The notes: a model not told the origin generated them from the sequence alone. 64,000 nt of DNA from an archaeon (GCA_037442745.1 JBBIPP010000009.1:1-64000); one strand, 5' to 3'. Positions 11,473 to 40,430 are shown, counted from the stretch's first letter. Program-made: numbers and translations.

Positions 11473-11534
11473 TTTCTGTCTTTTTCTCTGAGAAACTGAA
11501 CAGGAGAATAAAAGGGTTTTCGGGGACGAGTTTC

Positions 11535-11574
11535 CGGTATTCGGCGGGGACGGATATTAATTCGCCGAATACCG
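11535..11574 (-). promoter_or_regulatory. Palindromic operator upstream of herA
   Basis: CGGTATTCGGCG-N16-CGCCGAATACCG with perfect 12-bp arms; the same 10-bp arms and spacing occur upstream of radA. Putative TATA TTTTATT (minus strand) at 11507-11513. Confidence 0.7.
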
Positions 11575-11667
11575 ACCTCGCGTCGTACCTCGCTCGGCCG
11601 GTTGGGGCGGGGACGGATATTAATTCGCCGAATACCGACCTCGCGTCGTACCTCGCTCGGCCGGTTG
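11543..11667. repeat. Tandem duplication, 2 x 62 bp (period 63)
   Basis: GGCGGGGACGGATATTAATTCGCCGAATACCGACCTCGCGTCGTACCTCGCTCGGCCGGTTG at 11543-11604 and 11606-11667. Confidence 0.95.
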
Positions 11668-11743
11668 AGTAATATAGACGAAAAATCGTAAAACCTTCCT
11701 AAATCTTAATCTTCTTTTTAATAGAGAAGCTCGTTTCTTCATT

Positions 11744-12279
11744 ATGGAAATAAATCAAGTAAGAACTGCTATAAAAATAGGTGATTTTATTCTAAGAAAG
11801 AATCATCGAAACAAAATAGATTTGATTTATTAGATTCTATTCCAAAAGAAACCTTGGTGGCGGACCTCCCTAGAGTTTATCTTTTTGTTGTTGACGGTGT
11901 TATTAAAAAAATTGGTGGTTCTTCAGGAAAAGGAGGAATAAAAAATACTATGAATTTTTACGTCTCCGCTATGACTGGCAGTCCGGGTGTTCCTAGATTC
12001 GTTCTGCATTTACTTATAGAAAAGGAACTAAAGAAAGATAGAAACGTGGAACTGTATATGATAACATCGCCTACTTGCCTCGCTGAAGTAAATGGATTAT
12101 TTTCATCAAAAAAGGTTGAAATTGCGAGCTTCAAGGAGATGGAGGATTTCTGCAAAGCTGATTATTTCTCCGTAGAGAAAAGGTTTCCTGATTGGAACTT
12201 TCAGGAGAACCATACGCCGTATCCACAGAAGGAAGCAAAACTTCACAACGAATATCACAAAAAAAGATTAAAAAAATAA
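11744..12279 (+). pseudogene. Putative GIY-YIG type II restriction endonuclease, frameshifted
   Basis: ATG at 11744 reads MEINQVRTAIKIGDF...IDLIY*, and a second frame continues LDSIPKETLVADLPRVYLFVVDGVIKKIGGS. This VY...KIG pattern is a GIY-YIG variant like that of Hpy188I. About 178 aa combined; convergent with a methyltransferase; AT-rich. Confidence 0.6.
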
Positions 12280-12283
12280 ATGG

Positions 12284-13268
12284 CTATACTCTAGGCGGGC
12301 TGAAAATAAGGATTTCATGAGAATCTTTGATATTCGTTTTCGTCCCGTTCATAAGGCGATTTTTACCTATTCGTGTCTCGCCTTGTCCCATTGTATATTG
12401 CCAAGAGGGAAAATGTTGTTCGAACTCTTGATAGTATTCGCGTATTGTTGGGCAGTTATTGTATGAAAGAATGAACCCGCCTTTATGTTTCTTTAATAAA
12501 TCCCGCAAAACTTCGTGAGGAAACCCTTTGTGATGAACGGGGATGTTTCTCATAGGATATATTCCTTTAAACATCTTTGAATCTGGACCGATATAATAAG
12601 GGGGATCCAAATACATAAAATCTGTTGGATATTTTTTAAGTACATTTTGGAAATCGGCACATTCAACTGTGAGCTTTCCCGGACGGAAAGCTCTTATTTT
12701 TTCTAACATTTTTCGGTATCTATCTTCGTTCAAGTATATTTCAGAACTCCAACCCATAAATCCGGGGCCGTATGACAAGTTGAAATTATACACAAAATAT
12801 GTGGCTAGTTTCAATTGGTCAAGGGTTGTTTCTTTCCTCCAAACTCTGTTGAGTGTTTTTCTTATGCGGTCAAACTCTTCCTTATTCGGCTTTAGTTTTT
12901 TGAGTTCGTGATAAAGTAGGTCGGGGGCGTCTATTTGAAATTTCCAATAATTGCACAAAATATCAAATATATCGAAGCCCTTAACCTAAGCCCGGGTGTT
13001 TACTTATTGCTATTTCAACAGAGCCTACGCCAAAAAATGGGGATATTACTCTCTTTGTATCAATAGGCAGTAGTTCTAGTATGTGCCCTACTGAAAGGCT
13101 TTTCCCGCCCGCATATCTTATTGTAGATTCCGCCACCCGTTTGTATCGGTTCATGCTATCGGGATTTTTGCTTGAAATATTTCTAAGAAATATTCGTTTC
13201 TTCTCGGCTAAGCTCACAAACTCATCTGGCGTAGTTTCGTATTCGGACATGAATGTTGTCAGTTCCAT
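12284..13268 (-). pseudogene. Dam/D12-class N6-adenine DNA methyltransferase, frameshifted near 12985
   Basis: The N-terminal part has RYAGGKS and SPFFGVGSVE. The second frame continues VKGFDIFDILCNYW, YLDPPYY and FILSYN. Confidence 0.88.
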
Positions 13269-13416
13269 ATCAAGTCTTTAAATAAAAATAATTGTTTAAC
13301 AATGTTGAGTGGCTATCTTTCCGCTAATCTTTTTTACTCCTGAAAACGACGGATTTGTTCTCTGGGAGGCCGCCCTTTAAACGAACCTCTTTTTTTGTAA
13401 AACTTTCGTAAATTTT

Positions 13417-14505
13417 CTAGAACGGTCTCTGCTTCCTTCTGAGAGCCATTGAAAGGGGCGTTGCTCCGGCCCTATCCGAAATCTGCTGGAAAATCAATTC
13501 AATATCCTCCTCAGAGAGCTTTGCCCGGGCGTCCGCCTCTATTATGACTGTGGGGAGCCCGTAGCTCCTGTTGAAGCGGGATGTGTTGTATATTGCGGAA
13601 GCTATTCTGTCAGCAACCTCGCCAACCTTTTCGGGTTCTGATAGGAAATCTATTTTCAGGGGGCGGTCGAACTCTGCCGAGCGAAGGTATATTGTGTAAA
13701 CCATTCTCGCGAATTCTCCGAGGCCCCCTTCCCCCAACTGGGACTTGCCCGGATGGGAGAATGCGCATGTCCGCTCTCCCGGGCTCAGGGAATCGAAAAG
13801 AATAACCGAGTCCCTGCAGTTCGTTTTCGGGGCTCCGGGAGAATCAGAAACTGAGCTGTAGAACCTGTTCTCCCTCGAATCCTCGACAACTCCCGAGAGG
13901 AAAATTCCGTTCTTCAAGCAGTATGAATAGAGTGACTTGTAGGCTGAGAGCATTTCCAGATAGTCAGCCCTAAGGGAGCTTCCTTCGCCCGCCTTGTTCG
14001 CCGGATGGGGGAGAATTGACCCGTGCATAACAAGGTGCTCCGGGTTTAGCGCTTTTGCGGAATCGAGCGCAATCTCAAACTCCTTTTTCGGGCGGATAAT
14101 GTTCACTGCAAGGAGAAAATCCATTTCAGACTCGGCATCGACAATTGTCTTTGGTTCTGGCGCGGGGTTCTTGGAAGGGAAATAGGAATGGTTCTTTAGC
14201 TTTCCCCGGGAATATTCAAAGAGAACGCCGACCGCTCGTATAAGTATCAGGTCAACCCCGTGATACTGCTCCTTTAGGAGACCGCCGTCAACTCCGAGTA
14301 TTTTGAAATCAGGCTCGTCTTTTCCGACTTTGATGAACAGGGGTTTCTCCGGTTCCGCCGACTCTTTGAGAACCTCGCCCGAGCGTTTTTCTGAAATCTC
14401 CCTCAGGAATTCGGAGGCAGCCCTCCTTTCAATTTCCTTGTTCCGGATTCCGTCAGCAGCTGATAGGACTGCTGTTGAGAGGTTCTTTGCGCCTGAAGGG
14501 GACAT
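13417..14505 (-). CDS. nurA: NurA 5'-3' nuclease
   Basis: ILGVDGG, MHGS, GVVEDS and YGLPTVIIEADARAK. Start placed at ATG 14505, downstream of TATTTAA at 14529-14535. Confidence 0.9.
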   Translation of the reverse strand: MSPSGAKNLSTAVLSAADGIRNKEIERRAASEFLREISEKRSGEVLKESAEPEKPLFIKVGKDEPDFKILGVDGGLLKEQYHGVDLILIRAVGVLFEYSRGKLKNHSYFPSKNPAPEPKTIVDAESEMDFLLAVNIIRPKKEFEIALDSAKALNPEHLVMHGSILPHPANKAGEGSSLRADYLEMLSAYKSLYSYCLKNGIFLSGVVEDSRENRFYSSVSDSPGAPKTNCRDSVILFDSLSPGERTCAFSHPGKSQLGEGGLGEFARMVYTIYLRSAEFDRPLKIDFLSEPEKVGEVADRIASAIYNTSRFNRSYGLPTVIIEADARAKLSEEDIELIFQQISDRAGATPLSMALRRKQRPF

Positions 14506-14547
14506 TGTTTTCCGTCTCTTGCGTTCGGTTAAATAGGCTTTTCCTGA

Positions 14548-14564
14548 ACTTTCCGATATTCGGC
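14548..14564 (-). promoter_or_regulatory. Single copy of the herA/radA operator arm upstream of nurA
   Basis: Plus-strand ACTTTCCGATATTCGGC has one mismatch to CCGGTATTCGGC and lies 20 nt from the TATA edge. Confidence 0.6.
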
Positions 14565-14638
14565 CTGTGCGTTGATTGATATTATTTCGCTCGTTTGGCC
14601 AGCTAAACAATATAAGCCCGAGGCGGAGTTTCTAGGAA

Positions 14639-16540
14639 ATGTCAAAGAAATATTATATTACAACAGCAATTCCCTATGTCAATGCACCTCCCCACATAGG
14701 CCATGCATTGGAATTCGTGCAAACAGACGTTATTGCCCGGTTTCACAGACTATTCGGGGAGGAAGTCTTCTTCCTCACCGGAACTGACGAGAACGCCCAG
14801 AAGAACGCCTTGGCTGCGGAAGCCCTCGGAATTCCCACGCAGACGCTTGTCGACAGGAACTCGGGCATTTTCGAACAAGTCCTCTCGAAGCTCTCAATAT
14901 CGAATACCGACTTTATCCGCACAACTGACAGGGCTAGGCATTGGGAAGGTGTGAAAGCCCTATGGAGCGCATGCGCCAAGTCTGGGGACATTTACAAGCG
15001 GGGCTATTCAGGCCTCTATTGCGTTGGATGCGAGGCTTTTGTTACTGACAAGGACCTAGTTGACGGAAAATGCCCGGAGCACATGAAGCCTCCTGAGGAG
15101 ATAATTGAGGAGAACTATTTCTTCCGGCTTTCGAAATACCAAAGAAAGCTCGAGGATCTGATAGAATCCGACTCTTTGAAAATAGTTCCTGAATCGAGAA
15201 AGAACGAGGTCCTCTCGTTCATACGGGAAGGGTTGGAAGATTTCAGTGTCTCTAGGCCCGCGTCTAGAATGGGAGGCTGGGGGATTCCGGTTCCGGGAGA
15301 CGAGAGCCAGACGATTTATGTCTGGTATGACGCCCTCGGAAACTACATAACTGCCCTCGGGTTCGGGACGAAAGCAGACGAGAAATACGAGAAATTCTGG
15401 CCGGCAAACCTACACGTTATTGGCAAAGGAATACTCAGGTTCCATGCAGTATACTGGCCGGCAATTCTTCTCTCGGCAGGAATCTCCCTCCCAAAGGAGA
15501 TTTTCGCCCACGGCTATATCACTGTCAACGGAACGAAGATGTCAAAATCCCTCGGAAACATTGTGGCCCCTATTGAGGTAGCGGAAAAGTTCGGGAGCGA
15601 TTCGTTCAGGTATTTCATTATGCGGGAAATCACGCCATTCGAGGACGGGGACTATTCAGAGGCTCTCCTTGCCGAGCGGGTCAATAACGAGCTTGTCGCC
15701 AATTTCGGAAACCTCGCGTACAGGACAATGACTTTTTCAGAAAAGAACTTTGGGGGGGTTCTGAAAAGGCCCTCCAATTTCTCGCCAAAAGAGGAAGCGC
15801 TTCTCGGCAGGAGGAAGGCTGTTGCCGAAAAGGTCAAGGGACTTGCTGAGGAGCTTAAACTCAGGGAAGCTCTTGAGGAGATTTTCACCCTCTCAAGCGA
15901 AGGGAACAAGTACTTTCAGGAGAGTAAGCCGTGGGTTCTTGTGAAGGAAAACCGGACAGAGTGCGAAAAGGCGCTATTTGTCGCGTCAGAAATAACAAAA
16001 ACTTGCGCAGTCCTCCTCTCCCCGTTCGTCCCTGTCGCGTCCGAGAAATGCCTAAGAATGCTCGGGGTAAGGAAAGAAACGCTTTTGCTTTCGGACGCAT
16101 ATTCGGATTCGGACTTGTTCTCAATTGGGAAGGTTGAAATACTTTTCAACAAAATAGAGGTTGCGAGAAAGGAAATTGGTGGGGGAGCTAAAATGGAATC
16201 CGGAAAGGAAAAGGTTTCGATTGATTACTTTAGGAAAGTCGAGCTACGCGTTGCGACAGTCCTCTCGGCGGAAAGGGTTCCCGGAGCGGAAAAGCTCCTG
16301 AAACTCTCCCTTGATGTCGGGGAGGGTATTCCGAGGGCAATTGTTTCAGGAATTTATCCTGTGTATTCTCCCGAAGATCTCCTTGGACGGCAGATAATAA
16401 TTGTCGCGAACTTGGAACCAGCGAAAATACGGGGAATTGAGAGCAACGGGATGCTCCTTGCAGCATGGGATGAAAAGAAAGGCCAGCTCGCCCTCATTCA
16501 CCCGGGAAAAGAGATACTTGCCGGAACGAGGATATCCTAG
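14639..16540 (+). CDS. metG: Methionine--tRNA ligase with fused C-terminal tRNA-binding (OB) domain
   Basis: YVNAPPHIGH, TGTDE, CVGC..CPEH knuckle, YVWYDAL, KMSKS and ANLEPAKIRGIESNGMLL. Confidence 0.97.
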   Translation: MSKKYYITTAIPYVNAPPHIGHALEFVQTDVIARFHRLFGEEVFFLTGTDENAQKNALAAEALGIPTQTLVDRNSGIFEQVLSKLSISNTDFIRTTDRARHWEGVKALWSACAKSGDIYKRGYSGLYCVGCEAFVTDKDLVDGKCPEHMKPPEEIIEENYFFRLSKYQRKLEDLIESDSLKIVPESRKNEVLSFIREGLEDFSVSRPASRMGGWGIPVPGDESQTIYVWYDALGNYITALGFGTKADEKYEKFWPANLHVIGKGILRFHAVYWPAILLSAGISLPKEIFAHGYITVNGTKMSKSLGNIVAPIEVAEKFGSDSFRYFIMREITPFEDGDYSEALLAERVNNELVANFGNLAYRTMTFSEKNFGGVLKRPSNFSPKEEALLGRRKAVAEKVKGLAEELKLREALEEIFTLSSEGNKYFQESKPWVLVKENRTECEKALFVASEITKTCAVLLSPFVPVASEKCLRMLGVRKETLLLSDAYSDSDLFSIGKVEILFNKIEVARKEIGGGAKMESGKEKVSIDYFRKVELRVATVLSAERVPGAEKLLKLSLDVGEGIPRAIVSGIYPVYSPEDLLGRQIIIVANLEPAKIRGIESNGMLLAAWDEKKGQLALIHPGKEILAGTRIS

Positions 16541-16660
16541 AACTGAAGCAGGGGCGGGGTATTGGCCACCTGTTAAGGGAAACTCCTCCGGGAGCTTGAA
16601 ACTCCTGCAAACGGGTTTTTTGGAAAAACCCTTTAAACTTTAACCCTTTATTCAGGGACA

Positions 16661-16945
16661 ATGTGCGGGTTTGAACTGAAGGCAAACGAAGGGGACACTG
16701 AGAGAATGGTGAGAGCGCTCCTCTCTGGAGCATTCCTCCTCTGGGGGTTCTTCCTCCTTGAGGGAATTCTCAGAACAGTAGCATATGTGCTCTCGGCAGT
16801 CCTTGCAATAACTGCAATAACCGGATTCTGCGGGCTGTATGCAATTATGGGAATAAGCACTTGCCACGTCCCTAAGAAGCCGGCTGTCCCGGAAGAGAAG
16901 GCTAAAAGGAAGCTTCCGGCAAGGGTCAAAGCCAGAAGAAAGTGA
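16661..16945 (+). CDS. DUF2892 (YgaP-like) small membrane protein
   Basis: NEG.TERMVR...TAITGFCGLYAIMGISTC pattern with two hydrophobic helices. Confidence 0.8.
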   Translation: MCGFELKANEGDTERMVRALLSGAFLLWGFFLLEGILRTVAYVLSAVLAITAITGFCGLYAIMGISTCHVPKKPAVPEEKAKRKLPARVKARRK

Positions 16946-17007
16946 AATTTCCCCTCCTGAAATAAAGTTTAAAAGGGACGTTCTAGCCAGTTTAGCCCGC
17001 GAGCTTT

Positions 17008-17084
17008 GGGCGCGTAGCTCAGTTGGTAGTAGCGCTGCTCTGATAAGGCAGAGGTCAAGGGTTCAAATCCCTTCGTGCCCACCA
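17008..17084 (+). tRNA. tRNA-Ile (GAT), CCA encoded
   Basis: Acceptor stem GGGCGCG/CGTGCCC-ACCA, anticodon arm CTGCT-CTGATAA-GGCAG, T-arm AAGGG-TTCAAAT-CCCTT; one extra T in the D-arm. Confidence 0.93.
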
Positions 17085-17179
17085 CCTCAGATTTCGGCTG
17101 ATTTCAGATGCCTCAACCTTCGTGCCCACCACCTCAGATTTCGGCTGATTTCAGATGCCTCAACCTTCGTGCCCACCAC
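17070..17179 (+). repeat. tRNA-linked tandem repeat, 47-bp period, three copies of the tRNA 3' end
   Basis: CCTTCGTGCCCACCAC at 17070, 17117 and 17164, separated by two identical 31-bp spacers. Confidence 0.95.
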
Positions 17180-17187
17180 GAAACCAC

Positions 17188-17306
17188 GGGGGCTAATCGC
17201 CCCCCTAGTTCTACGTTACTCCTGACCCCCCATGTGCGTCCTTTGGACGCACGAGCTCGCCTGAGTGTTTCGGAGAGCAGGCGAAATCCCGAAGGGCCTG
17301 AGCTCG
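17188..17306. ncRNA. Candidate structured RNA/DNA element
   Basis: Hairpins GGGGGC/GCCCCC and GTGCGTCC/GGACGCAC, then a multi-stem junction closed by GAGCTC...GAGCTC; family unknown. Confidence 0.3.
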
Positions 17307-17349
17307 GATAAATGCAACGCAATTAAACAATCGGGCAGTTCTATTGCCA

Positions 17350-17900
17350 ATGGAACTGCTCTTTGCGTCAACCAACAGCGGGAAATTCGAGCATCTGAAG
17401 GAACATCTCGCCCAGTTCGGGATATCTGTTGCCTAGGCGCGCCTAGAGCTCCCCGAAAGCCAGAGCTGGGAGCTCGCAGAAATTGTCAGGGAAAAGGCTC
17501 GCTTTGTTTTTTGGGAATTGAAAAGGCAGACCCTCAAGCTCGACTCGGGCTTCTTCATTGGTTCTCTCAAAGGTTTTCCCTGGCCGTATACAAAGTACGC
17601 CCTTGCTACAATCGGTGCAAGGGGGGATTGCAAGGCCAGTGGACTTGGGAAGCTTGGGTGGCTTTTTTGCGAACGCGCCCTGCTATTTCGATGGATAGGG
17701 CAACGGAATTGTCTTTGAATCCCAAATCATGGGAATTCTCGAGATTTCGCCGGGGGAAAGCTTCCCGAGGGAAAGGAAATCCTTTCGCGCTCTTTTGGAT
17801 GAAAAAATGGACGCCGGGAAAATTACTGCGAGGCTTAAGTTCGGGAGGCGTATCAGGCATCCGAGAGCGGCAATCAGGCCGAAAAGCCAGCCAGTCGTTT
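17350..17900 (+). pseudogene. Ham1/RdgB non-canonical purine NTP pyrophosphatase remnant
   Basis: MELLFASTNSGKF...SVA*(TAG 17434)ARLELPESQ...EIVREKA...LDSGFFIGSLKGFPWPYTK, followed by further frameshifts and stops (YFDG*GNGIVFES). The 3' boundary is approximate. Confidence 0.8.
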
Positions 17901-17930
17901 CTTCTTTTCCGGGAGGCGCATTTCCGGAAA

Positions 17931-18415
17931 TTAATTGGGGTCAATTCCGAGAGTCGTTGCCCGCGATTTTTCAATGCCGATTTTCTCGAGGGCCGAGAAA
18001 ACTTCCTTCTTCGAACTGCCATCTATTTCCGGGAGCTGGGGAATTTTCGGCAAATAGTCTATTGTGAGGACTGCCTCGGGAAGCTCCCACTTTTCCCTAA
18101 CATCCTCCCGATAATTTCTCCTACATCCGAGGCTTGTGAGTATTTTCGCGGTCGCATCAAAGCTTTCGACAATTGTCGTCGCTTCGAAAACATCCCCAAC
18201 CTTCCAGCTCTTGATTGACTTTGGTGTAAGTTCGGTCGTCGACCAGTCGGTTATCAGGCGTATCAATTTCTTCAGGCGCCTCTCTTTTGCTGGCAGATTA
18301 TAGACAATCCTCCGCAAAAGGGTTTTCTTTTGGGCCTTGCCCCAGCTCTCCTTAGGGTTGCCCGGAATTCCCCAAGGTCTATTGAAGGCACCCTTACTTC
18401 GTATTCTCTCGCAAT
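17931..18415 (-). pseudogene. CYTH-domain (class IV adenylate cyclase-like) gene, frameshifted
   Basis: REYEVR (ExExK-like) N-terminus in one frame and LLRRIVY...REKW...TIDYLP...EIDG in another. The shift is at an A-run near 18330, and the apparent start codon is ATT. Confidence 0.7.
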
Positions 18416-25949: not shown

Positions 25950-28196
25950 TTATTTGTCTTTCTTATCGGACTGGGCATTGTCCCCTTCCTCTCCGAAAAC
26001 TACCCTGCGTATTGTCGCAGATGTCGCCTTGCCAATTCCGCGGACATTTTCGAGTGCGCTTTTTTCTGCGAGAAATACTGCTCCCGGGGTTTTGAATTCG
26101 GAAAGAAGCCTCCTTGCAAGGGTTATATTCACTTCCGGAATGGATGCGACAAGGGCTTCCTGCTGTTCGGAGAGAGTCTTTCCCCGCTTCTTTCCCTTCA
26201 ACTGGGGGGGATTCCCCTCAGAGAACTCCCGCTTGGCAATTGAAATTATTAGGGCGGCAGTCTCATCCGTTCCTGAGGAGAATATTGTCGGTATCCCAAA
26301 CTCAAGGGCAACTGCCGCAAAGGCACCCCTTATTGCGTTAGGGTGGATGTTTCGCTCAGAATAGAGAGTCTCAATCCCCTTTTCAGCTTCTATTATTATC
26401 AGGGGCCGGTCAAATGATTTGGCAAGCTCCCCCGCCTGCTCGAAGAGACGGCCATCCATTATTGAGGAAACGAAATCTCCAGCCTCCTTCCGCTCTATTG
26501 CAATAGAATCCGAGATAATATAGTCGGCGACAGGCAAGTTCGTTATCTCGAGGGCGAACCCGGAATTCCGAAGAATCGGGAGGATTCCAGATGGCATTTC
26601 CCGGGAATCGGCAATTATTTTCTGGGAGATGTCGCCCTTGGCGCCGTCCTTCTCCTCGTCAATGAAGGGGACAAGCGTCTTGTTTGCGGAAACTTCCTCC
26701 CTCTTCGCCATCCTGGCCGAGCGTATTATCTCATTCATTGCTTTCTCGTTCCGATGCGATATCCACCTGTATGCCTCGTCCCGAGTCCCTTTGGCGAAAA
26801 GAACAATAACTTTTCCATCCCCTTTTCTTCCGGTCCGCCCCCTTCTTTGAATATGCCTTATTGCGCTCGGGACAGGCTCGTAGAATATTATCAGGTCAAC
26901 TGAAGGTATGTCAATTCCCTCCTCCCCGACAGAAGTGCTGACGAGGACTGCGAACTTGCCCTCTCGGAACTCTTCAATTGTCTCCTTTTGCTTTTTCTGG
27001 GTGAACCCCTCCTTCTGCCCAAGGAAAATGTGCGAGGTTATCCCTGCGTTTGAGAGCTCTTCGGATATTTTCTTCGCCTGCGAGCGGTAGTGGGAGAAAA
27101 CTATTGCCTGCCTTCCGTCTTCTCTGTCCTTGATTAGGGAGACGAGTGCTGGAAGCTTTGGATGGTCGAGTCCCTTTGCCCGCAGATGCCTTGCGATCGC
27201 TTCCGCCTGCCGGAAATCCTCGAGAAGGGATATTTGCTTTGAGGATTTCGAGCCATCTGCCTTCATTTTCACGAGGAATTCCGTTAGGGAGAAAATCCCT
27301 TGGGTCTCTAGGAGCTCTATTGAATGGAGTATTTTTATTGCACCCGCAGTGTTCGCAATTGCGGAGAAATCCCGGAGCGCGGCCGCCCTTGACTTTGCCC
27401 CGAGGAGTTCCCTTTTTGAGACAAATGACGAGTCGGCGGACTCTATAAGGCCGGAGGCTTTCAGGCCCCGAAGGTAGCTCCGGAGGACTGAGAAGAGGAG
27501 CTCTCGCACACGGAGGAACTCTTTGGGAAGATCTATTTGCCTAAAGTCAACTGACACCTTGGAAACATAAGGCGAGACGTCCGGGTCGCTCTCTGTCCGG
27601 GCCTCCACCCTTGAAATCCGAAGGTTCCTGCATATTTCGTCAACCTTCTCCTTTGTGTTTCCCGGGGACGCGGTTAGGGCGAGAATCAGAGGATTCTCGG
27701 AGGAGTTTGCATATTCCCCTGCCAAGAAAACATATGAATCGCTTTTCACGCAATGGTGGGCCTCGTCGAAAACCGCAATGGATGTCCGCTTGAATGAGAA
27801 CGCTCCTGTCAGTATGTCATTTCGGAGAGCGGGGGCAGTGACGGAGATTAGGCGCGATTTTGAGTAGAGCTCCTTTCTCTTTTCGGGGGGAGTTTCCCCG
27901 GTTATTGGAACTGCCTCTATTGAGAGGAAGGAAGAGAGCGTTTTCGCGTGCTGTTCCACTAGGGGCTTTGTCGGGGCAATTATCACTGCGTTTGTTTCCG
28001 GAAATTTGGAAAGGCGGGAAGATATTACAAGGGCCGCGATTGCAGTCTTTCCGAGAGCTGTCGGGAGGACAACCAAGGTGTTTTGGCCCTTTAGGATTGC
28101 CCCCGCAATAACTTCCTGATAGAGTCTCCTCTCTATTTTCTCAGGAGAAATGAAACCACCTGAGAAATATTCTTTTCCGGCGGAGTTTTCGGGCAT
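25950..28196 (-). CDS. hef: Hef (FANCM-like helicase plus ERCC4/XPF nuclease and HhH)
   Basis: LPTALGKT, DEAHH, LTASPG, QRRGRTGR, DSRE and IERKEAGDF. Confidence 0.95.
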   Translation of the reverse strand: MPENSAGKEYFSGGFISPEKIERRLYQEVIAGAILKGQNTLVVLPTALGKTAIAALVISSRLSKFPETNAVIIAPTKPLVEQHAKTLSSFLSIEAVPITGETPPEKRKELYSKSRLISVTAPALRNDILTGAFSFKRTSIAVFDEAHHCVKSDSYVFLAGEYANSSENPLILALTASPGNTKEKVDEICRNLRISRVEARTESDPDVSPYVSKVSVDFRQIDLPKEFLRVRELLFSVLRSYLRGLKASGLIESADSSFVSKRELLGAKSRAAALRDFSAIANTAGAIKILHSIELLETQGIFSLTEFLVKMKADGSKSSKQISLLEDFRQAEAIARHLRAKGLDHPKLPALVSLIKDREDGRQAIVFSHYRSQAKKISEELSNAGITSHIFLGQKEGFTQKKQKETIEEFREGKFAVLVSTSVGEEGIDIPSVDLIIFYEPVPSAIRHIQRRGRTGRKGDGKVIVLFAKGTRDEAYRWISHRNEKAMNEIIRSARMAKREEVSANKTLVPFIDEEKDGAKGDISQKIIADSREMPSGILPILRNSGFALEITNLPVADYIISDSIAIERKEAGDFVSSIMDGRLFEQAGELAKSFDRPLIIIEAEKGIETLYSERNIHPNAIRGAFAAVALEFGIPTIFSSGTDETAALIISIAKREFSEGNPPQLKGKKRGKTLSEQQEALVASIPEVNITLARRLLSEFKTPGAVFLAEKSALENVRGIGKATSATIRRVVFGEEGDNAQSDKKDK

Positions 28197-28290
28197 TTGG
28201 GTCAGTTTTCCTCATTTCGGGTTTTTAGAGTGTTTGGATGGGCTTGCCGGTATTGGTAGTCTGGAGGCGGGGGGCCGGAAAGCTTATAAG

Positions 28291-28314
28291 TAATATTCTG
28301 AAATCTGAATATTA
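28291..28314 (+). promoter_or_regulatory. Inverted repeat, likely PadR operator
   Basis: TAATATTC-N8-GAATATTA between TATA (CTTATAAG 28283-28290) and the padR ATG at 28321. Confidence 0.6.
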
Positions 28315-28320
28315 GAAAAT

Positions 28321-28707
28321 ATGAATAAGGATTCGGGCGATGCCGGCCTCTCAAGGCATATGGCAAAGGGAATGCTGAAGCTATTCATACTCTTCTCAAT
28401 TGCCAAATCCCCGAGCCACGGCTATTCTCTCTTGAAGGAATTCAGGAACAAGTCCAAATCCTGCCCGGCGGATGCGAGGAAAGACATCGGAATCGGGCAA
28501 TTCTATTCTATTATTGACGTACTAGAAGAGTCGGGCCTTGTGAAATCGTCCATTGAGGGCAGGACGGGGCGCCAGAGGAAAATGCTCTCAATAACGCCCA
28601 AGGGCAGGCAAGTTGTCCGAAAAGCGAAAAGGCATTTCGCATCCGCAATCGGGATGTTCAAAGAAGTTGTTCCAGAACTCTTCGGGAATCCCGGGAGGGC
28701 CCCTTGA
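28321..28707 (+). CDS. PadR-family transcriptional regulator
   Basis: SHGYSL...G.FY....LEESGLV...RK...ITPKG. Confidence 0.88.
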   Translation: MNKDSGDAGLSRHMAKGMLKLFILFSIAKSPSHGYSLLKEFRNKSKSCPADARKDIGIGQFYSIIDVLEESGLVKSSIEGRTGRQRKMLSITPKGRQVVRKAKRHFASAIGMFKEVVPELFGNPGRAP

Positions 28708-33576: not shown

Positions 33577-34746
33577 ATGCTACTCGCCCTTGCGACAAGA
33601 AACCTCCTTCGACGCAAGTCAAGGACAATTCTCTCCGCCATTGGGATAATCCTCGGGGTAGCAATGATAATTTCCCTCGTCTCGGTTGCGCAGGGCCTTC
33701 GGAACAGCGCGGAATCTTTCGCAAACCAGATAGGGAACAACATTGTCATTTCCCAGGCGAATAATTTCGGTCCCCCGATGACGAGTAGCCTCGACGAATC
33801 GCTTGTCGAGGAAATTGAAAAAATCCCGGGGGCGAGGGTGGTTTCTCCAGTTGTTATTGTCCCTGTGAAAACTCGCGACAAGACGGGAAGAAAGGGGTTC
33901 TTCGCGTCCGAGAACCAGCTTGGTTTGGTTGGCGTTGATGCTTCAAGGGAAAGCCAGGCATCTTCAGACTATACGAAAATAGCTGCAGGACGATTCCTCA
34001 GAAGAGATGATAAGGAGAGAGTTGTCCTAGGGGCGACAGTTGCCGCAAACCTTGGGAAAAGGGTTGGAGACGATCTTGAATTCAAGCAGAGGGGAAGGGA
34101 ATTCTCATTTGAAATAGTTGGGATTTATGAGACGGGGGATGAGGAAGCCGATCAGGATGTTGTTACAACTCTTGCGGAAGCTAGAAGGGTTGGCGACATT
34201 CCAAAGACAAGGGTGAACCTGATAACTGTTGTCCCGTCGAACCCGGGGCAAAGTGAGGCCCTTGAGAGGAAAATAAAGCTCCTGATACCCGGAGTTGACC
34301 CTTCATACGGGAGGACTTATGCAAACCTCCTTTCAACTTTCACTGGGACTCTCCAGATTGCCACATGGGTAATTGCCGGGATTGCTGCATTCATCGGGGG
34401 GATAGGGATAATGAACACAATGGTAATGTCGGTCATTGAGCAGACAAAGGAGATTGGTGTTCTTCGGGCATGCGGATGGAAACGTGGGGACATTCTCCTG
34501 ATAATACTTGCCGAGAGCGTCGGAATAAGTCTTGTCGGGGGAATTCTCGGGGGAGTCCTCGGCATTGTGGTGACTCTTTGGATTCTTCCGGCAATTTTCA
34601 AGGGCGTCCTCTCTCCAGTTGTCACTCCCCTTATTGTTTCCCAGGCGTTCTTCTTCGCCCTAGCTCTCGGGATATTCGGAGGTTTCCTTCCGGCCAAGAG
34701 GGCGTCTGATTTGGATCCGGTGGAGGCGTTCAGAAATGAGGAATGA
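33577..34746 (+). CDS. MacB/FtsX-family ABC permease
   Basis: RNLLRRKSRT, GIMNTMVMSVIEQTKEIGVLRACG and PAKRASDLDPVEA. Confidence 0.93.
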   Translation: MLLALATRNLLRRKSRTILSAIGIILGVAMIISLVSVAQGLRNSAESFANQIGNNIVISQANNFGPPMTSSLDESLVEEIEKIPGARVVSPVVIVPVKTRDKTGRKGFFASENQLGLVGVDASRESQASSDYTKIAAGRFLRRDDKERVVLGATVAANLGKRVGDDLEFKQRGREFSFEIVGIYETGDEEADQDVVTTLAEARRVGDIPKTRVNLITVVPSNPGQSEALERKIKLLIPGVDPSYGRTYANLLSTFTGTLQIATWVIAGIAAFIGGIGIMNTMVMSVIEQTKEIGVLRACGWKRGDILLIILAESVGISLVGGILGGVLGIVVTLWILPAIFKGVLSPVVTPLIVSQAFFFALALGIFGGFLPAKRASDLDPVEAFRNEE

Positions 34747-35458
34747 GAAGAAAAAGGAAATCTTGATTGAGACAATTGGCCTGAAAAAGTTCTATGAGGT
34801 CGGAAAAGTCTGGGCTCTCGGGGGTGTTGACATACAAATTGAGCGCGGGGACTTTGTCTCAATAATGGGCCCATCTGGATGCGGGAAAAGCACGCTCCTC
34901 CATATGCTCGGGGGGGTTGACCGGCCGAGCGAAGGCGTTGTGAGAGTTGGCGGAGCGAACCTATCTGAGCTTGAAAGCGACGAACTTGCCCTTTTCAGGC
35001 GCGAGAAAGTCGGAATAATTTTCCAGAGCTTCAACCTCCTTCCGACGTTGACAGTCCTTGAGAATGTCCTTGTCCCAGTAATGCCGTTCTCCTCAATTGG
35101 GGGGAACGGCTACAGGGAAAAAGCGACCCTCCTTCTCAAGAGGTTCGGCTTGGGCGATAAGCTGAACAATTCGCCAAACGAGCTCTCTGGCGGACAGAAC
35201 CAACGGGTGGCAATTGCGCGGGCTTTGATAAACTCTCCGGACATCATATTGGCGGACGAACCAACGGGACAGCTAGATTCCCGAAACGGAAAGGAGATAA
35301 TGGAGCTTTTGCGGGAGTTAAACGAAGAGGACGGAGTCACAATAATACTCGTCACCCATGACGAGAAAACTGCCGATTATGCCAAGAGGAAGATACTCCT
35401 CAGGGACGGCCTTGTCGTTTCCGGAGGAGTTGGGCGGGCGGATGGGAGAAAGCGCTAG
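34736..35458 (+). CDS. LolD/MacB-type ABC ATP-binding protein
   Basis: GPSGCGKST, LSGGQNQRVAIARAL, ADEPTG and VTHD. Confidence 0.95.
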   Translation: MRNEKKKEILIETIGLKKFYEVGKVWALGGVDIQIERGDFVSIMGPSGCGKSTLLHMLGGVDRPSEGVVRVGGANLSELESDELALFRREKVGIIFQSFNLLPTLTVLENVLVPVMPFSSIGGNGYREKATLLLKRFGLGDKLNNSPNELSGGQNQRVAIARALINSPDIILADEPTGQLDSRNGKEIMELLRELNEEDGVTIILVTHDEKTADYAKRKILLRDGLVVSGGVGRADGRKR

Positions 35459-36619
35459 ATGTATCCAGCGTTCGCTCTGAAGAACATTTCGAGGAGGAAG
35501 CTAAGGAGTTTCCTTTCAACTCTTGGAATACTTTTGGGCGTTGCCCTGATAGTCTCGCTTGCATCGATTTCGGACGGGCTTGAGAAGACAATGGAAGGCG
35601 TCTCAAAACAGATCGGGGGGACGATATATGTTGTCGAGGCTGGCAAGTTCGGGAACACTTTTGCAAGCAGGATAAGCTCGTCTCAAATAGAGCAAATAGA
35701 AAAAATACCCGGGGTAAAAACCGTTGCTCCTGTCTCAATTGCGCTGGCCGAAATGGAAGGATATGTCGGCGCATACTCATTCATAGGGGATTTCGTATAC
35801 CTGACGGGCGTCCTTCCCGACAAAGAAAAGCAGGTAAACAGCATGTTCACTAAAATGCTCTCCGGGCGGTTCGTTTCAAAGGGGGAGACTGAAATGGTTG
35901 TCCTTGGAAGCTCCCTTGCGGAAAAGACAGGAAAGAATGTCGGAGACCTTATCAAGGTGAAGGCAAGGGGAACCTGGCACGAGTTCGGTGTTGTCGGAAT
36001 TTTCGAGAGCGCGAGCGACGACGATGACCATGTGATTCTTGACATGGCAGTCTACAAGAAAATCACCGGAGAGCCCCCGCTGGAATACAACATTGTGGGA
36101 GTTGTCCCGACAAGCGACGCGCTTTCTGGAACAGTTGAGAGGAAAATAAAAATCCTCATTCCGACTCTCGACCCGAGCTATGCAAGGGCAGCAATCCAGA
36201 GCGCCCAGGCATTCGCGAGAACCCTCAAAATAGCGACATGGGTTATTGCGGGAATTGCTGCTCTTATAGGGGGCCTCGGGATTGCGAACGCAATGATAAT
36301 GTCAGTTTCCGAGAGGACGAAGGACTTTGGAATCCTGAAAGCCGTCGGCTGGAAGAATTCAGACATTGTCGGAATTGTCGTCCTCGAGAGCGTGATAATA
36401 AGTTCGGTTGGCGCAATAATCGGAATTGCCATCGGCTTTTTGGTTTCAAAAGGGCTTCTTCCTATAATTATCAGGCAGTTCGAGACCGACGTTTCCCTGA
36501 CAACAATTGTCTGGGCGTTCCTCTTCGCCTTAGTTCTCGGGGTCGGGGGGGCAATTGCCCCGGCGAAGAGAGCTGCCGATCTTGACCCGGTCGCCGCATT
36601 CAGGGGCGGGGCGAAATAG
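35459..36619 (+). CDS. MacB/FtsX-family ABC permease (paralog of 33577-34746)
   Basis: KNISRRKLRS, MSVSERTKDFGILKAVG and PAKRAADLDPV. Confidence 0.93.
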   Translation: MYPAFALKNISRRKLRSFLSTLGILLGVALIVSLASISDGLEKTMEGVSKQIGGTIYVVEAGKFGNTFASRISSSQIEQIEKIPGVKTVAPVSIALAEMEGYVGAYSFIGDFVYLTGVLPDKEKQVNSMFTKMLSGRFVSKGETEMVVLGSSLAEKTGKNVGDLIKVKARGTWHEFGVVGIFESASDDDDHVILDMAVYKKITGEPPLEYNIVGVVPTSDALSGTVERKIKILIPTLDPSYARAAIQSAQAFARTLKIATWVIAGIAALIGGLGIANAMIMSVSERTKDFGILKAVGWKNSDIVGIVVLESVIISSVGAIIGIAIGFLVSKGLLPIIIRQFETDVSLTTIVWAFLFALVLGVGGAIAPAKRAADLDPVAAFRGGAK

Positions 36620-36650
36620 ATATAAAAGCGCCCGGGAAATATTGGAAATA

Positions 36651-37475
36651 ATGGGCATTCTTGAATGGCTCGGGCTGAGGAGGGATTCTCCGAAGAAGGA
36701 TGAAATTCCTTCCCAGCCAGTTCCTTTGGTTCAAACGGCCACTCAAACAAGCACTTCCAAACAATCTCCGGAGCAGGAAAAAAAAACCCAGCCGGAAATG
36801 CCTTCGTTCAAAAAGCCGGCGGACTGGCGTCTTCCGAGGGATGACCTCCGGTTCAAGAGCGATTCGGAAAAAATAAACTACATTCTCCAGGGAGTCTATT
36901 CAATCTATGACGAACTGAAGCCAATGGCGGACGACGGGACAAGGGTATCTCGACTCCAGCTTCTTCTAGAGAACTTGACTCCATATGAAAGGGAGCAGGC
37001 TCGGAGAACAATTGAGGATCTGGACATTGACAACCTTGTAATAAAGTTCCTCGATTATCCAAAATCAATTGAGGAAATTTCGGAGAGCATCCGGAAGAGC
37101 TATGGATATACTGCGGCAAGGCTCCGGCACCTGCGCTCAATTGGTCGCGTTGCAAGGCTTCGGGACCCTGTCACTAACAAATACAAATACACAATAATTT
37201 CAAAGCAGGGGGCTGGCGACAAGCCAGAAATCCCTGAAGAGCTTCTGCCCGGGAGCCTTGAAGCAGTTACTGAGGGAGAGGTTGATGAGAGTGGGCCTTT
37301 TCCTGAAGGAAATCCGTTCTCGGGGAAAGATTCTGTTTCGGGGAAAACGGAAGCTAGTGAACTTCCAATGGAATCCTTGGGAGAGCCGATTATTCTTGAA
37401 CAGCAACAGCCATCCACTGAGGAAGAAAAGAAGCCAAATGAAGAGCAGAGAAAGAGCCCGGAAAGCCCGGTCTAA
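36651..37475 (+). CDS. Hypothetical protein with central winged-HTH and disordered termini
   Basis: PKSIEEISESIRKSYGYTAARLRHLRSIGRV; ATATAAAA about 30 nt upstream of ATG 36651. Confidence 0.65.
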   Translation: MGILEWLGLRRDSPKKDEIPSQPVPLVQTATQTSTSKQSPEQEKKTQPEMPSFKKPADWRLPRDDLRFKSDSEKINYILQGVYSIYDELKPMADDGTRVSRLQLLLENLTPYEREQARRTIEDLDIDNLVIKFLDYPKSIEEISESIRKSYGYTAARLRHLRSIGRVARLRDPVTNKYKYTIISKQGAGDKPEIPEELLPGSLEAVTEGEVDESGPFPEGNPFSGKDSVSGKTEASELPMESLGEPIILEQQQPSTEEEKKPNEEQRKSPESPV

Positions 37476-37478
37476 ACC

Positions 37479-38558
37479 CTATTCCTCCTCAATATCCTCT
37501 ATCCCTTTTTCAGTGACCTGGAAGACTGCTTCCCCTTCCGGGAGGTCTGGAGAGTCTATAAGTTTCGCAACCCTCTTTGTTCCCTTTGATTTGCGGAGAA
37601 ACATCCGGTATGTTGCTGCATGGGCAAGGACGTTTCCCCCAATTGCCTCAACCGTTGGGCCCCAGAAAGCGTCTGGCTTGGCCGAAACCTGGTTCGTAAT
37701 ATAGACAATAAGATTGTAGACGTCCGCCAATCGTTGAAGCCTGTGGAGGTGGCGGTTGAGTTTCTGCTGGCGATCAGCCAAGGTGCCTCTTCCCATAAAT
37801 TCCGCTCTGAAATGGCTCGTTATTGAGTCAACTACAATTAGCCTTATTTTCTTTCCTCTATTAATCATCTCCTCAATCTGGTCAACGAGGAGCATCTGGT
37901 GGTCGCTGTTATATGCTCGGGCAATTATTATTTTTGAGAGGATCTCGTCTTGGGAGATTCCCTGGGCCTCTGCGAGCTGGATAATTCTCTCAGGACGGAA
38001 AGTGTTTTCAGTGTCAATGAATGCGACAGAGCCGTCCAACCCCCCCTTTTCAACCGGAAGGGTTGTGTTCACTGCCAATTGAAACCCAAGCTGGGATTTT
38101 CCAGAGCCGAATGCCGCAAACGACTCGGTTATTGCCTGGGTCTGCACGCCACCCCCGAGAAGATCGTCAAGCGTCTTTGACCCGGTTTTCACTCTGCCGA
38201 CTTTTTTCCTCTTTTCAAGGAGCTGGCTTGCTGGCTCGAATCCTATTTCGAGATGTTCCCTCGCCACATTGATTATTTTCGCGCAGGTTGCTTCCCCTAT
38301 TTCAGTAATTGCCGCTATTTCCGCGGGGGACGCTGCCGCAACTGCAAGCATGTCAATATATCCGGCAGCGGCAAGCTTTTCCGCTGTCTTTGACCCGACT
38401 CCGGGGAGGTCTTCAACTGAAGTTATTTTCTCCTCTTTGCCCTTTTTCTTTGCCCTGGGGGATTCCTCTTCTGTTGGCTGAGCGGGCGTTTCCTCAACTG
38501 CAGGGGAATTTTCTATTTCAGTATCTTTGTTTTCAGCTGCCGATTTTTTCGTTGCCAT
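37479..38558 (-). CDS. radA: DNA repair and recombination protein RadA
   Basis: DLPGVG HhH, GFEPA polymerisation motif, [19 protein letters not shown] and [11 protein letters not shown]. Confidence 0.98.
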
Positions 38559-38583
38559 TTTGTTTTCTCAGTAAATTGGTGGG

Positions 38584-38609
38584 CTCTGTCTCTATTTATA
38601 GAGACAGAG
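38584..38609 (-). promoter_or_regulatory. radA TATA box embedded in a perfect palindrome
   Basis: CTCTGTCTCTAT-TT-ATAGAGACAGAG; the minus strand reads TATAAATA at 38600-38593. Confidence 0.6.
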
Positions 38610-38620
38610 AGTAACTTACC

Positions 38621-38658
38621 GGTATTCGGCAGGGGTTGCTTTTATTTCGCCGAATACC
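38621..38658 (-). promoter_or_regulatory. Palindromic operator upstream of radA
   Basis: GGTATTCGGC-N18-GCCGAATACC, with arms and spacing identical to the herA site. Confidence 0.7.
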
Positions 38659-39293
38659 AGTTTCTCCTGCGACAGTCAAATTTTGTCGCAAAACGCTCTG
38701 GGAAGGTTCTTCGTACTCGGGAGCTGCCGAGCATCACTAGGCCAGTTCCTGACTGAAATTGATTTTAAAAAACTCAGACAATTAGCCAAAAATTTTCTTT
38801 CTGATTAAAAACCTTGAATATTTTCCCGGCGCTCGCATTTTCCTGAAAAACGCCTATTTGACAAGGAGAAGCTGGCCTTTTGGAATATTCCGAATAATGG
38901 GGAAGAGTTTCTGGCTTTACGTTTCTAGGGAGCGGGAATTTTCCTTTGAAGCCCCGGTTATCAGGACAATCTCCTTTCGCTCGAGCTTTCCTGTGGGAAG
39001 GGGGTGAAGCTGTCTGCTTTGTATCTGGCAGGAAAAGAAGGGGAACTGCACGTGTCTTTCCTCGAGAGCAACTATTGCCGGGGCGAACGCAAATATTTGG
39101 CGGACATTGTTTTGTTCCTTGTTGAGAATGTTCCGCCTTCTTTAGGACGGCAAAATGATTATTGCTTTTCTCTTTTGAGTTTCGTCCGCAGGGGAATTTC
39201 CGAAAACGCTAATTATTCGATTGGGAGCTTTTCTTTTTGGGCTGGAAAATTCCTGTTAGATATTCGGAGGCTTTCGGAAATGTGGCAATCGCC

Positions 39294-40316
39294 CTATGCT
39301 TCTTGTTCCAATTCCTTTGTGAGTTTTTCAATCTCCCGTGAAACGTTCACTTCTGAGACGGAATTAACTACTAGTTCCATGCGATCGAAAACGGAGTTGT
39401 ATCTTGCCCGCCCGGAGAATACCCTCTCCTGACCTATCAATTTCGTTGTCGCGGCATAGATTACCATCGGGTTTCCGGCGAGGTCTGAGAGCTTTTCAGC
39501 GTCTTCCGTCTTCATTCCAAGAAGGCTTTCGGCCGCCTGCTTGAAAAGAGTTGCCCGAATTGTTCCGGAGCCGTCGTCAATGAGAATGTTCAGTATCAGG
39601 GCGCGCTTTGTTTCTGTATTGTCGTGCTCGGCGCAGGTGTTAATTGACCTTCCGCACTCTTTGCAGGTTTCGTAGAAGGGGCTTCTTGTGTCGAAGAATT
39701 TCATTACATTCGCCCGGATAATTACTGGCGAGGTCTCGTTCTCTGTTAGGGAGCTGATTTCCTTCTCCTTTCCGAAAATCGGAAGGGAGCCGGCTCCCTT
39801 TGCACCGACTTCCGGAAGGGTTTTCCCCTCGCCTTCGGGGTTGAGTAGTAGCCTTGTCCTGTTCGATGCGTGGATTTCCGGGCGGCCCTCCCGGTCTGTC
39901 TTTACATATGCGTTCGATATTTGCAGTATGTCCCCGACTTGGGCGGTTTCTATGAAATTTGCAAGAACTCCCCAGAGAACTAGGCGCGTTGTCCCTGTCT
40001 CGTCAAGAATTAGGAGGTTTGCAACTTGCCCTTTCCTTCCGCCCTTGTCGAATTCTCGCTTTTCGTAGACCCGTAGAACGCGGGCTACAAGATTAACCGG
40101 GCTACCCGGCTTCAAATCCTCTATTTTGCCAACTGATTTCAGGGACGGAAGAGTCTGAATCCCGAGTTCGTTCGCAATAATATGGGCTGCTCCCAAGTCT
40201 GATACTAGGCCTGCGAGCTCTTTTTTCTTCCCGTCAATCAGGTTCATTATCTCCTCTCTTGGGAGCTGGGAATCCTCTACGAGCTTGTTCACAATTGAAT
40301 CAAAGTCTGCCTGCAT
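39294..40316 (-). CDS. rpa: Replication protein A (OB folds plus Zn-finger-like motif)
   Basis: DUF2240-like N-terminus (LAGLVSDLGAAHIIANELG), ILDETG..RLVLW, CKEC...C.EH and DDGSGTIRATLF. Confidence 0.9.
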   Translation of the reverse strand: MQADFDSIVNKLVEDSQLPREEIMNLIDGKKKELAGLVSDLGAAHIIANELGIQTLPSLKSVGKIEDLKPGSPVNLVARVLRVYEKREFDKGGRKGQVANLLILDETGTTRLVLWGVLANFIETAQVGDILQISNAYVKTDREGRPEIHASNRTRLLLNPEGEGKTLPEVGAKGAGSLPIFGKEKEISSLTENETSPVIIRANVMKFFDTRSPFYETCKECGRSINTCAEHDNTETKRALILNILIDDGSGTIRATLFKQAAESLLGMKTEDAEKLSDLAGNPMVIYAATTKLIGQERVFSGRARYNSVFDRMELVVNSVSEVNVSREIEKLTKELEQEA

Positions 40317-40430
40317 TGCCGGACGAGGGCTCGTCCGGTTTATAGGGTTTTTGAGGGCGTTTCCGGTGAATTGGGAGCAATTTGGCTAAAAAGGGCAAAA
40401 TTAAATAATAGGGTTTCCTTTTTCTCATTC

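Follow-up and report, generated by a model that had tools for sequence, protein, structure and literature searches.

A promoter box common to recombination, repair and replication genes in an archaeal class, with an Orc1/Cdc6 paralogue as its candidate reader

The stretch of archaeal DNA analysed here, hereafter the window (64,000 nucleotides; GCA_037442745.1 JBBIPP010000009.1:1-64000), is contig 9 of a 20-contig genome (G000; 1.136 Mb, ~49% G+C, estimated 94.5% complete), whose host lineage we take only as an uncultured one of the DPANN type. Upstream of its herA, nurA, hef, radA and rpa genes lies a short element that reads GCCGAATACCGGAAA in gene sense and has its GG 16-22 nt 5' of the TATA box. 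Analysis of this element across the genome and its relatives strongly suggests that it is a transcription-factor box defining a regulon of recombination, repair and replication genes. It further points to a divergent Orc1/Cdc6 paralogue, the promoter of which holds two such boxes as a palindrome, as a plausible reader of the box, and the regulon with this paralogue as its autoregulated reader appears to us to be the best explanation of the observations, although we would hold to it with no more than even confidence.

A first-pass annotation of this DNA had proposed five related plus-strand words before these five genes, at a set spacing from the TATA box. All five words were located where it had placed them (Table 1), and the spacing is as it had described. 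In gene sense the words read GCCGAATACCGGAAAC (herA), GCCGAATATCGGAAAG (nurA), GCCGAATACCGGTAAG (radA), TACCAATACCGGCAAG (hef) and CCAATTCACCGGAAAC (rpa), and each of the five promoters shows the same succession of a CCGG, 17-22 nt, a TATA-like run, a further 23-34 nt and the start codon. Three features had escaped that annotation, namely inverted repeats at herA and radA, a 62-nt tandem duplication at herA, and the weak specificity of the short core that it had used. The herA inverted repeat has 12-nt arms of 100% complementarity with 16 nt between them, and owing to the tandem duplication its distal arm is found a second time at 11626-11637. The arms of the radA repeat are of 13 nt and 92% complementary, are separated by 18 nt, and again include the box as the proximal arm.

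Table 1. Genes, boxes, TATA runs and repeats of the window that bear on the promoter element
Feature	Position	Strand	Remarks
HerA gene	9928-11472	-	Pfam; ATG at 11472
herA TATA run CTTTTATT (gene sense)	11507..11514	-	19 nt 3' of CCGG
herA box GCCGAATACCGGAAA (gene sense)	11531..11545	-	proximal arm of inverted repeat
herA word GGTATTCGGC	11536-11545	+	plus-strand letters
herA inverted repeat, distal arm CGCCGAATACCG	11563..11574	+	partner arm 11535-11546
Tandem duplication upstream of herA	11543..11667		62 nt twice, 63-nt period
D12 methyltransferase box GATTAGCGGAAAG	13318..13330	-	split gene 12284-13268; rank 7 with independent matrix
NurA gene	13417-14505/14610	-	Pfam; ATG at 14505
nurA box GCCGAATATCGGAAA	14550..14564	-	TATA CTATTTAA at 14530-14537
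nurA word GATATTCGGC	14555-14564	+	plus-strand letters
Hef gene (helicase + ERCC4)	25950-28196	-	Pfam
hef box TACCAATACCGGCAAG	28243..28258	-	TATA TCTAAAAA at 28222-28229
hef word GGTATTGG	from 28249	+	plus-strand letters
RadA gene	37479-38558	-	Pfam
radA box GCCGAATACCGGTAA	38616..38630	-	TATA TATAAATA at 38593-38600
radA word GGTATTCGGC	38621-38630	+	plus-strand letters
radA inverted repeat, distal arm GCCGAATACCAGT	38649..38661	+	inverted-repeat analysis
RPA gene (RPA-type OB protein)	39294-40316	-	Pfam
rpa box CCCAATTCACCGGAAAC, 5' part degenerate	40361..40375	-	TATA CCTATAAAC at 40338-40346
rpa word GGTGAATTGG	from 40365	+	plus-strand letters

The exact 11-mer CCGGTATTCGG occurs six times on both strands of the 1.136-Mb genome, as against ~0.5 occurrences expected by our own arithmetic, and four of these six, at herA, radA, C3:41789 and C5:71276, are intergenic with the same TATA spacing. 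Similarly, with up to two mismatches the 15-mer GCCGAATACCGGAAA recovers 15 matches in the genome, compared to a single one for the reversed word. The core TTnCCGRT originally put forward as the shared feature is unspecific on its own, with 513 genome matches. The core CCGG[AC]AA alone also lacks specificity, with 75 sense versus 65 antisense matches in 552 upstream regions, and a scan of five genomes with a 10-mer allowing one mismatch was too noisy for use.

The box was followed through a comparison class of 17 genomes from 13 genera, which were grouped as families f1-f4 (f3 comprising ten genomes and f4 two large ones, G006 and G008) and are related by kinship rather than being independent samples. 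As had been anticipated of a functional site, relatives retain it in the promoters of the orthologues although the sequence around it has diverged. In G001, a relative from the same genus, the radA promoter has GGTATTCGC-N20-GCGAATACCGGAAAG (arms also given as GGTATTCGC-N20-GCGAATACC) before the same TATA, the spacer of the inverted repeat having been rewritten; the herA box GGAATACCGGCAAAG lies 20 nt before TTTTATT and the hef box GATTACCGGCAAAT 20 nt before TAAAAACC, the rpa box TTTTACAGGAAAC has one core change, and that of nurA is degenerate. In G003 the boxes are AAAATACCGGCAAG at nurA and CTAACCGGAAAC at rpa, the latter 20 nt before TAAAAGG; nurA of G002 has TTAGTGGCAGG, GGCA variants are present in G002 and G004, and a hef box is visible by eye in five f3 genomes. 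Beyond the genus the long 11-mer does not recover the element at radA, and the radA promoters of the class nevertheless all have a shorter core in that position (e.g. TCACCGGCAC, AGTGGCAC, AATGGCAAC, AGCGGCAC, ATTGGCAGG and GTACCGGCACG). The element extends beyond a single genus and, in a shorter form, YGG[CA]A after (A/T)TA, over the whole class. The corresponding logos read A-T-T-A-C-C-G-G-[A/C]-A-A-G for 25 sites of f1 and f2, and A-[T/C]-A-C-T-G-G-C-A-[A/C]-G for 32 sites of f3.

A class-wide test was performed on the 120 nt upstream of the inferred starts of orthologues of ten gene families in the 17 genomes. For eight families with functions in replication, recombination and repair (3R), the offset count took in the 73 out of 99 promoters with a detectable TATA box, and in these YGG[CA]A was found in gene sense 38 times at offsets 17-21, with no more than three occurrences at each of the other offsets or on the opposite strand. 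A laxer automated test for the box architecture was positive for 61 of the 126 promoters of all ten families, in comparison to 56 of all 554 promoters of G000 (Fisher odds ratio 8.3, p 1.4e-20); the same test gave 6/126 in antisense, and 15/126 and 10/126 at shifted offsets. By family, positives were obtained for mcm (11/16), mre11 (8/13), hel308 (7/13), nreA (7/14), radA (7/12), xpd (6/10), nurA (6/15), hef (5/12), herA (2/5) and rpa (2/16). These automated counts include operon-internal genes without a promoter of their own (e.g. rpa and nurA of f3), and mis-called start codons or TATA boxes cost them several sites that are evident on visual inspection; in five distant genomes no clear box was seen at mre11. 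The genome-wide offset profile of G000 has no peak, with 16 of 371 promoters positive, and among neighbouring non-target genes at the relatives' loci only 5/135 were positive, two of which are in fact nurA of G004 and radA of G008. Together with the 56/554 of the laxer test, these figures bear out the earlier impression that the word is rare at other promoters.

These counts also bear on the possibility that the boxes are chance matches or fragments of a dispersed mobile repeat. Such an origin might be suggested by the tandem duplication and inserted DNA that flank the herA copy, and by the location of some boxes before orphan or methylase genes. An element of the miniature inverted-repeat transposable element (MITE) type would have many copies that are alike well beyond the word, and a blastn-short search with seven upstream regions against the genome revealed no common stretch of more than 41 nt (the longest being herA versus C5) and otherwise local tandem duplication only, because of which the dispersed repeat, named at the outset as an observation that would overturn the proposal, fails as an explanation. 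Chance, in turn, is excluded by the statistics of position, strand and gene class and by conservation in 13 genera, and we regard this whole alternative as next to impossible. The properties by which a regulon site is recognized, namely placement at a set distance from the core promoter and in one orientation, enrichment before related genes with rarity elsewhere, and conservation at orthologues, are all found for the box, and on these sequence patterns it is very probably a regulon-defining site of a transcription factor.

The extent of the regulon in G000 was explored with a weight matrix for which only G001 and G003 supplied sites, 11 in all, and by which the promoters of G000 were ranked according to the highest-scoring box that a TATA-like run follows at 15-23 nt; the gene set comprised 1134 crude calls based on open reading frames (ORFs), with gene starts and TATA runs called by our own heuristics and the top genes named by Pfam. 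The first rank was taken by the Orc1/Cdc6 paralogue, followed by an orphan ORF of 245 amino acids (aa) at rank 2, XPD (rank 3), herA (rank 4), hef (rank 6), the split D12 methyltransferase of the window (rank 7), an RPA-like OB protein (rank 8), a DUF4364-like protein (rank 10), radA (rank 11), a Metallophos protein and then an 847-aa SMC_N/AAA_23 protein, i.e. mre11-rad50 (rank 12), an N6_N4 DNA methylase (rank 14) and MCM (rank 19). Orphan or unrelated ORFs occupy ranks 5, 9 (an EamA transporter), 13 and 15-18. A RIO1 kinase, the RFC large subunit and an AP_endonuc_2 protein are found lower in the ranking, and the box list also includes the unrelated genes for EamA, GH57, nitroreductase, iPGM, HAD hydrolase and L37ae. 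Boxes are further present in the promoters of Hel308 (CTAGTATCGGAAGAG) and NreA, and before an operon ending in PCNA (ATTTTACGGAAAAA, 13 nt before TTTTAAAC). Hence, boxes of the same spacing occur at mre11-rad50, hel308, cdc6 (in the form of the paralogue) and the PCNA operon, where the first-pass annotation had proposed to look for further members, and additionally at xpd, mcm and nreA. Its notion of a repair and recombination regulon holds for the repair genes and was too narrow, as the set also takes in replication genes such as mcm and the PCNA operon. Two further matches were set aside, one at C6:30499 before a 1185-aa surface-type protein on account of its wrong spacing, and one before DNA ligase (C13), which is doubtful at 137 nt upstream.

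The 3' half of the box resembles CCGGAAAA, an ordinary word of G000 similar to the transcription factor B recognition element (BRE), which is found 2-4 nt before many TATA boxes. Given this likeness, the box might be taken for a BRE-like decoy, or for an additional core-promoter element that the basal machinery recognizes through TFB or a TFB paralogue. However, the box lies 13-17 nt from the TATA box with a separate BRE-like word (GAAAACCC and similar) between the two, it is not followed by an A+T-rich run, its conserved 5' part (A/T)TAC falls outside the BRE-like word, and it occurs at this offset in just the 16 of 371 promoters mentioned above. A role in the basal machinery is accordingly rated as very improbable.

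The regulon thus outlined contains a candidate for its own regulator. G000 encodes two Orc1/Cdc6 proteins, on contigs 3 and 7, with 28% identity between them. The contig-3 protein is a typical Orc1-1 (2qby_A, 2.5e-102). Its contig-7 paralogue, a protein of 385 aa, matches the PDB structures 2v1u with 6.4e-44 and 2qby_A with 8.1e-43 as against 1.6e-12 for ORC2 (1w5s), scores that argue against membership of the Orc1-2/ORC2 clade. The promoter of the paralogue, GTATAAATACCGGAAAGGTCCCCCTTTCCGGTAATATG, contains two boxes arranged as a palindrome between the TATA box and the ATG. The same arrangement is present in G001-G004, with half-sites that follow the boxes of each genome. Analysis of cdc6-homologue loci in a species collection recovered a TATA box and an inverted pair of half-sites next to the start in 10 of 59 cases; four of these are the relatives just named, another five are loci of 35-37% identity (TTTTATTCTCGGCAA-n-TTCCGAyATG), and the tenth carries a Woesearchaeota label. 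The half-sites are ATACCGGAAA in G000 and G001, GTGGCA/TCGGCA in G002 and G004, and CTCGGCA in G041, G042, G044 and G045. In the genomes of the distant loci hel308 is preceded by CCTCGGCAAG, CTCTCGGCAAC or CTCTCGGCATA ~15 nt before the TATA box, radA of G044 likewise has CCTCGGCAAG, and in G043 the word GGAAAA is found both in the hel308 box and in the palindrome of the cdc6 promoter. This co-variation of palindrome and boxes in three lineages therefore suggests that one factor reads both, and the simplest reading is that this factor is the paralogue itself, a proposal for which, given palindrome and co-variation, the chances appear close to even. Upstream of the cdc6 paralogue in G008 and G006 there is also a palindrome with symmetric substitutions (ACCGGCATCATCCGGT versus ACTGGTATTATCCAGT) ~50 nt before the start, which may lie inside the upstream coding region.

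The box resembles half of a canonical mini-ORB (ORB, origin recognition box), with which it has a GGAAA-type core in common, and MCM promoters have a mini-ORB immediately 5' of it; a G-string follows the MCM box in three distant genomes. In G000, the A+T-rich DNA directly upstream of orc1-1 (C3:71005-71700) contains at least four mini-ORBs (CCAGTGGAAA, CCACAGGAAA, CCAATGGAAA and CCATATGGAAA) and is a probable replication origin. These resemblances raise the alternative that the initiator Orc1-1 of contig 3 reads the boxes and couples expression of the genes to origin licensing, with the paralogue being no reader: GGAAA is shared by the box and the mini-ORBs CCAGTGGAAA and CCAATGGAAA beside orc1-1, the MCM promoters have a full mini-ORB, and both Orc1/Cdc6 proteins score best against structures of the Orc1-1 type. 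Yet the ORBs of the origin possess a TCCA-nn-TGGA dyad and a different 3' flank, whereas the boxes are single, lack the dyad, do not cluster round an A+T-rich unwinding element and keep a set distance and orientation to the TATA box. Classification of the boxes as ORBs or mini-ORBs was rejected on these grounds, the dyad being found beside the box at MCM promoters only. Further, the palindrome is in the promoter of the paralogue and not in that of orc1-1, which makes the initiator an improbable reader.

Several observations weigh against the regulon or against the paralogue as its reader. Weak or short matches to the box are ambiguous because CCGGAAAA doubles as a BRE-like word; the gene and TATA calls are our own heuristic ones and were made on genomes that, as kin, are not independent samples; three of the strongest boxes of G000 (C3:41786, C5:71273 and C12:42407) have no conserved gene downstream; and the f4 genomes G006 and G008 have no box at hef, mcm, mre11, nurA, hel308 or nreA. 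The MCM box of G042, G044 and G045 (AATACYGG[AC]AGT plus G-string) is unlike the CTCGGCA boxes and palindrome of the same genomes, and therefore two related readers may exist. Finally, in f3 the promoter of the short cdc6 paralogue (~336 aa) has no palindrome, though boxes are kept at radA, hef, mcm, mre11, hel308 and nreA, and therefore the reader in this family would either not be autoregulated or be another protein. The latter option leads to the chief rival explanation, in which the same regulon is read by a different DNA-binding protein, for instance one with a winged-helix domain, and the paralogue is merely one more target repressed via its palindrome. Besides the f3 boxes, it draws on the circumstance that the link between the paralogue and DNA is deduced from sequence patterns, and on two boxed genes that could themselves encode regulators, a DUF4364-like small protein (C12:47359, weak Pfam match) and a ribbon-helix-helix (RHH) protein (C3:83517). 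The first of these, however, lies near an orphan gene (C12:42469) without homologue in 16 relatives, and at no other regulator gene was a palindromic box seen in operator position in several lineages. Moreover, in three separate lineages the palindrome changes along with the boxes, and the box is ORB-like and adjoins a true mini-ORB at MCM promoters. A different reader is for these reasons rather unlikely, though it deserves more weight than any of the alternatives considered above.

Under the preferred explanation, with the Orc1/Cdc6 paralogue as reader, the box, with the family consensus (A/T)TACCGG[A/C]AAG and the class consensus (A/T)TA-n-YGG[C/A]A, would be a transcription-factor site used in one orientation just beyond the BRE. 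Under one box the regulon would unite the core genes of recombination (herA, nurA, mre11-rad50, radA and rpa) and the gene for the RPA-like OB protein with helicases acting at forks and in excision (hef, xpd and hel308), with nreA, and with mcm and the PCNA operon, in at least 13 genera of uncultured archaea with small genomes. Archaeal activators usually bind just upstream of the BRE, and archaeal repressors between the TATA box and the transcription start. Because of the positions of the sites relative to BRE and TATA box, activation of the targets and autorepression of the paralogue are proposed: bound at the upstream sites of target genes, the paralogue might help recruit TBP and TFB, while from the palindrome between the TATA box and its own start codon it might keep its own level down by negative autoregulation. 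Judged from this position, activation is the most likely effect on the target genes, and the gene set fits control coupled to replication or the cell cycle as well as it fits damage induction. More tentatively, and short of an even chance, it may be conceived that a divergent paralogue, distinct from Orc1-2 of the Sulfolobales, adopted a half-site of ORB origin as a promoter box and through it runs an autoregulated network over genes of replication, recombination and excision repair, of an age sufficient for its presence throughout a class of DPANN-type archaea and, with modifications, in Iainarchaeum- and Micrarchaeota-labelled lineages.

Some further features were noted around the boxes. The hef intergenic region (28197-28320) also serves a divergent gene of the PadR family (28321-28707) with its TATA run CTTATAAG at about 28281, and the hef box sits between the two TATA boxes, so positioned that a single site could act on both genes. 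Beyond the distal arm of radA (window 38661-38760) there is a ~90-nt block containing two hairpins (GCGACA..TGTCGC and CTCGG..CCGAG), which recurs at the C5 box (C5:71340-71450) and partly upstream of radA in G001, is without an Rfam family, and may correspond to a small RNA, to a terminator belonging to the gene upstream or to another regulatory region; the Rfam families recovered in the window are three tRNAs and nothing else. The nurA and herA genes are neighbours in G001-G004, but are separated by 1.9 kb in G000 (11473-13416), where the insert encodes a 141-aa ORF without Pfam family (11854-12279) and the D12 adenine methyltransferase, split into 12284-12958 and 12981-13268 and provided with its own box, and has the tandem duplication of 63-nt period beside herA. 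In all, three DNA methylase genes of G000 have a box, that of the window included; the other two, for an N6_N4 DNA methylase and for a fragment of a D12 methyltransferase, stand back to back at C2:130722-132480 with a box-like word upstream of each. Perfect 15-mer boxes with the correct TATA spacing are found at C3:41786-41800, where the ORF that follows encodes a Cys-rich product of 116 aa (weak DUF5817 match), and at C5:71273-71287, where there is no ORF and the distance to the downstream gene for the CCA-adding enzyme is 249 nt. A region of 9 kb on contig 12 (C12:42400-51400) has three boxes, before the orphan 245-aa ORF, the DUF4364-like protein and an orphan 128-aa ORF, and may be an integrated element using the host box; for the 245-aa ORF behind the C12:42407 box, no Pfam family, Atlas neighbour or homologue in the 16 relatives was found. 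Upstream of hel308 in G005 there are three tandem copies of (G/A)TTGGCAAG before the TATA box.

We know of no archaeal lineage outside the Sulfolobales in which a transcription network controlling DNA damage or replication genes has been defined, and a literature search, with subscription journals and supplements lying outside its scope, found no such box described beyond that order. Archaeal regulators of the Ptr2/TFB-RF1 type use upstream activator sites just beyond the BRE and TATA box; the boxes have the same position and a likewise set orientation, and differ in their word and in the class of the presumed reader, which here would be AAA+ plus winged-helix. Orf8 of the haloarchaeal virus SNJ2, an Orc1/Cdc6 homologue, is reportedly part of a DNA-damage-dependent transcription switch; it differs in being a viral protein from a different lineage, for which no shared box is known. 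The closest parallel is offered by Orc1-2 of the Sulfolobales, where the targets include pili, DNA import and tfb3, in contrast to the recombination, repair and replication genes themselves that are targeted here. In the Sulfolobus system, Orc1-2 activates damage-response genes through an ANTTTC within the 20-bp consensus AATAGTTTCRGWDTACTCWS, 23 to 55 nt upstream of the ATG, with DNase I footprinting and reporter assays establishing its action (PMC6061795); the Sulfolobus repair genes are not induced by ultraviolet light, as another paper states (PMC2246294). The two systems are alike in having a short promoter word common to DNA-damage-related genes, read in the Sulfolobales by a non-initiator Orc1/Cdc6 protein. 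They are unlike in that the word here occupies the opposite strand with respect to the gene and lies farther upstream, with the class core YGGCA in place of GAAAnT. A likeness to ANTTTC had been pointed out earlier, and AGTTTC and ACTTTC are indeed present on the non-coding strand of the herA and nurA words, but radA has ACTTAC, hef has GCTTGC and the class core is YGG[CA]A, and an ANTTTC at 23-55 nt upstream of the ATG is not shared by the regulated genes. Provided that the paralogue is its reader, the box system would best be read as analogous, and not orthologous, to that of Orc1-2 in the Sulfolobales. Of the recent literature, a 2026 Haloferax paper considers possible non-initiator Orc1/Cdc6 homologues without a regulon (PMC12890983), and a 2026 preprint on Nanobdellota makes mention of neither ORBs nor promoters. 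As an analogy only, implying no homology of word or factor, the arrangement is reminiscent of the eukaryotic E2F/MBF regulons of G1/S and of the LexA SOS box, in which one word groups genes for MCM, PCNA, RPA, Rad51/RadA, Mre11-Rad50 and repair helicases, and the gene of the regulator has its own site. The present observations give organisms not yet in culture a concrete, testable regulon together with a named candidate for its regulator, and suggest that Orc1/Cdc6 paralogues act as transcription factors more widely and in more varied ways than in the one known case. If the proposed scheme is true, it would constitute an archaeal counterpart of the eukaryotic G1/S (E2F/MBF) regulon or of a damage regulon, made from the replication initiator itself.

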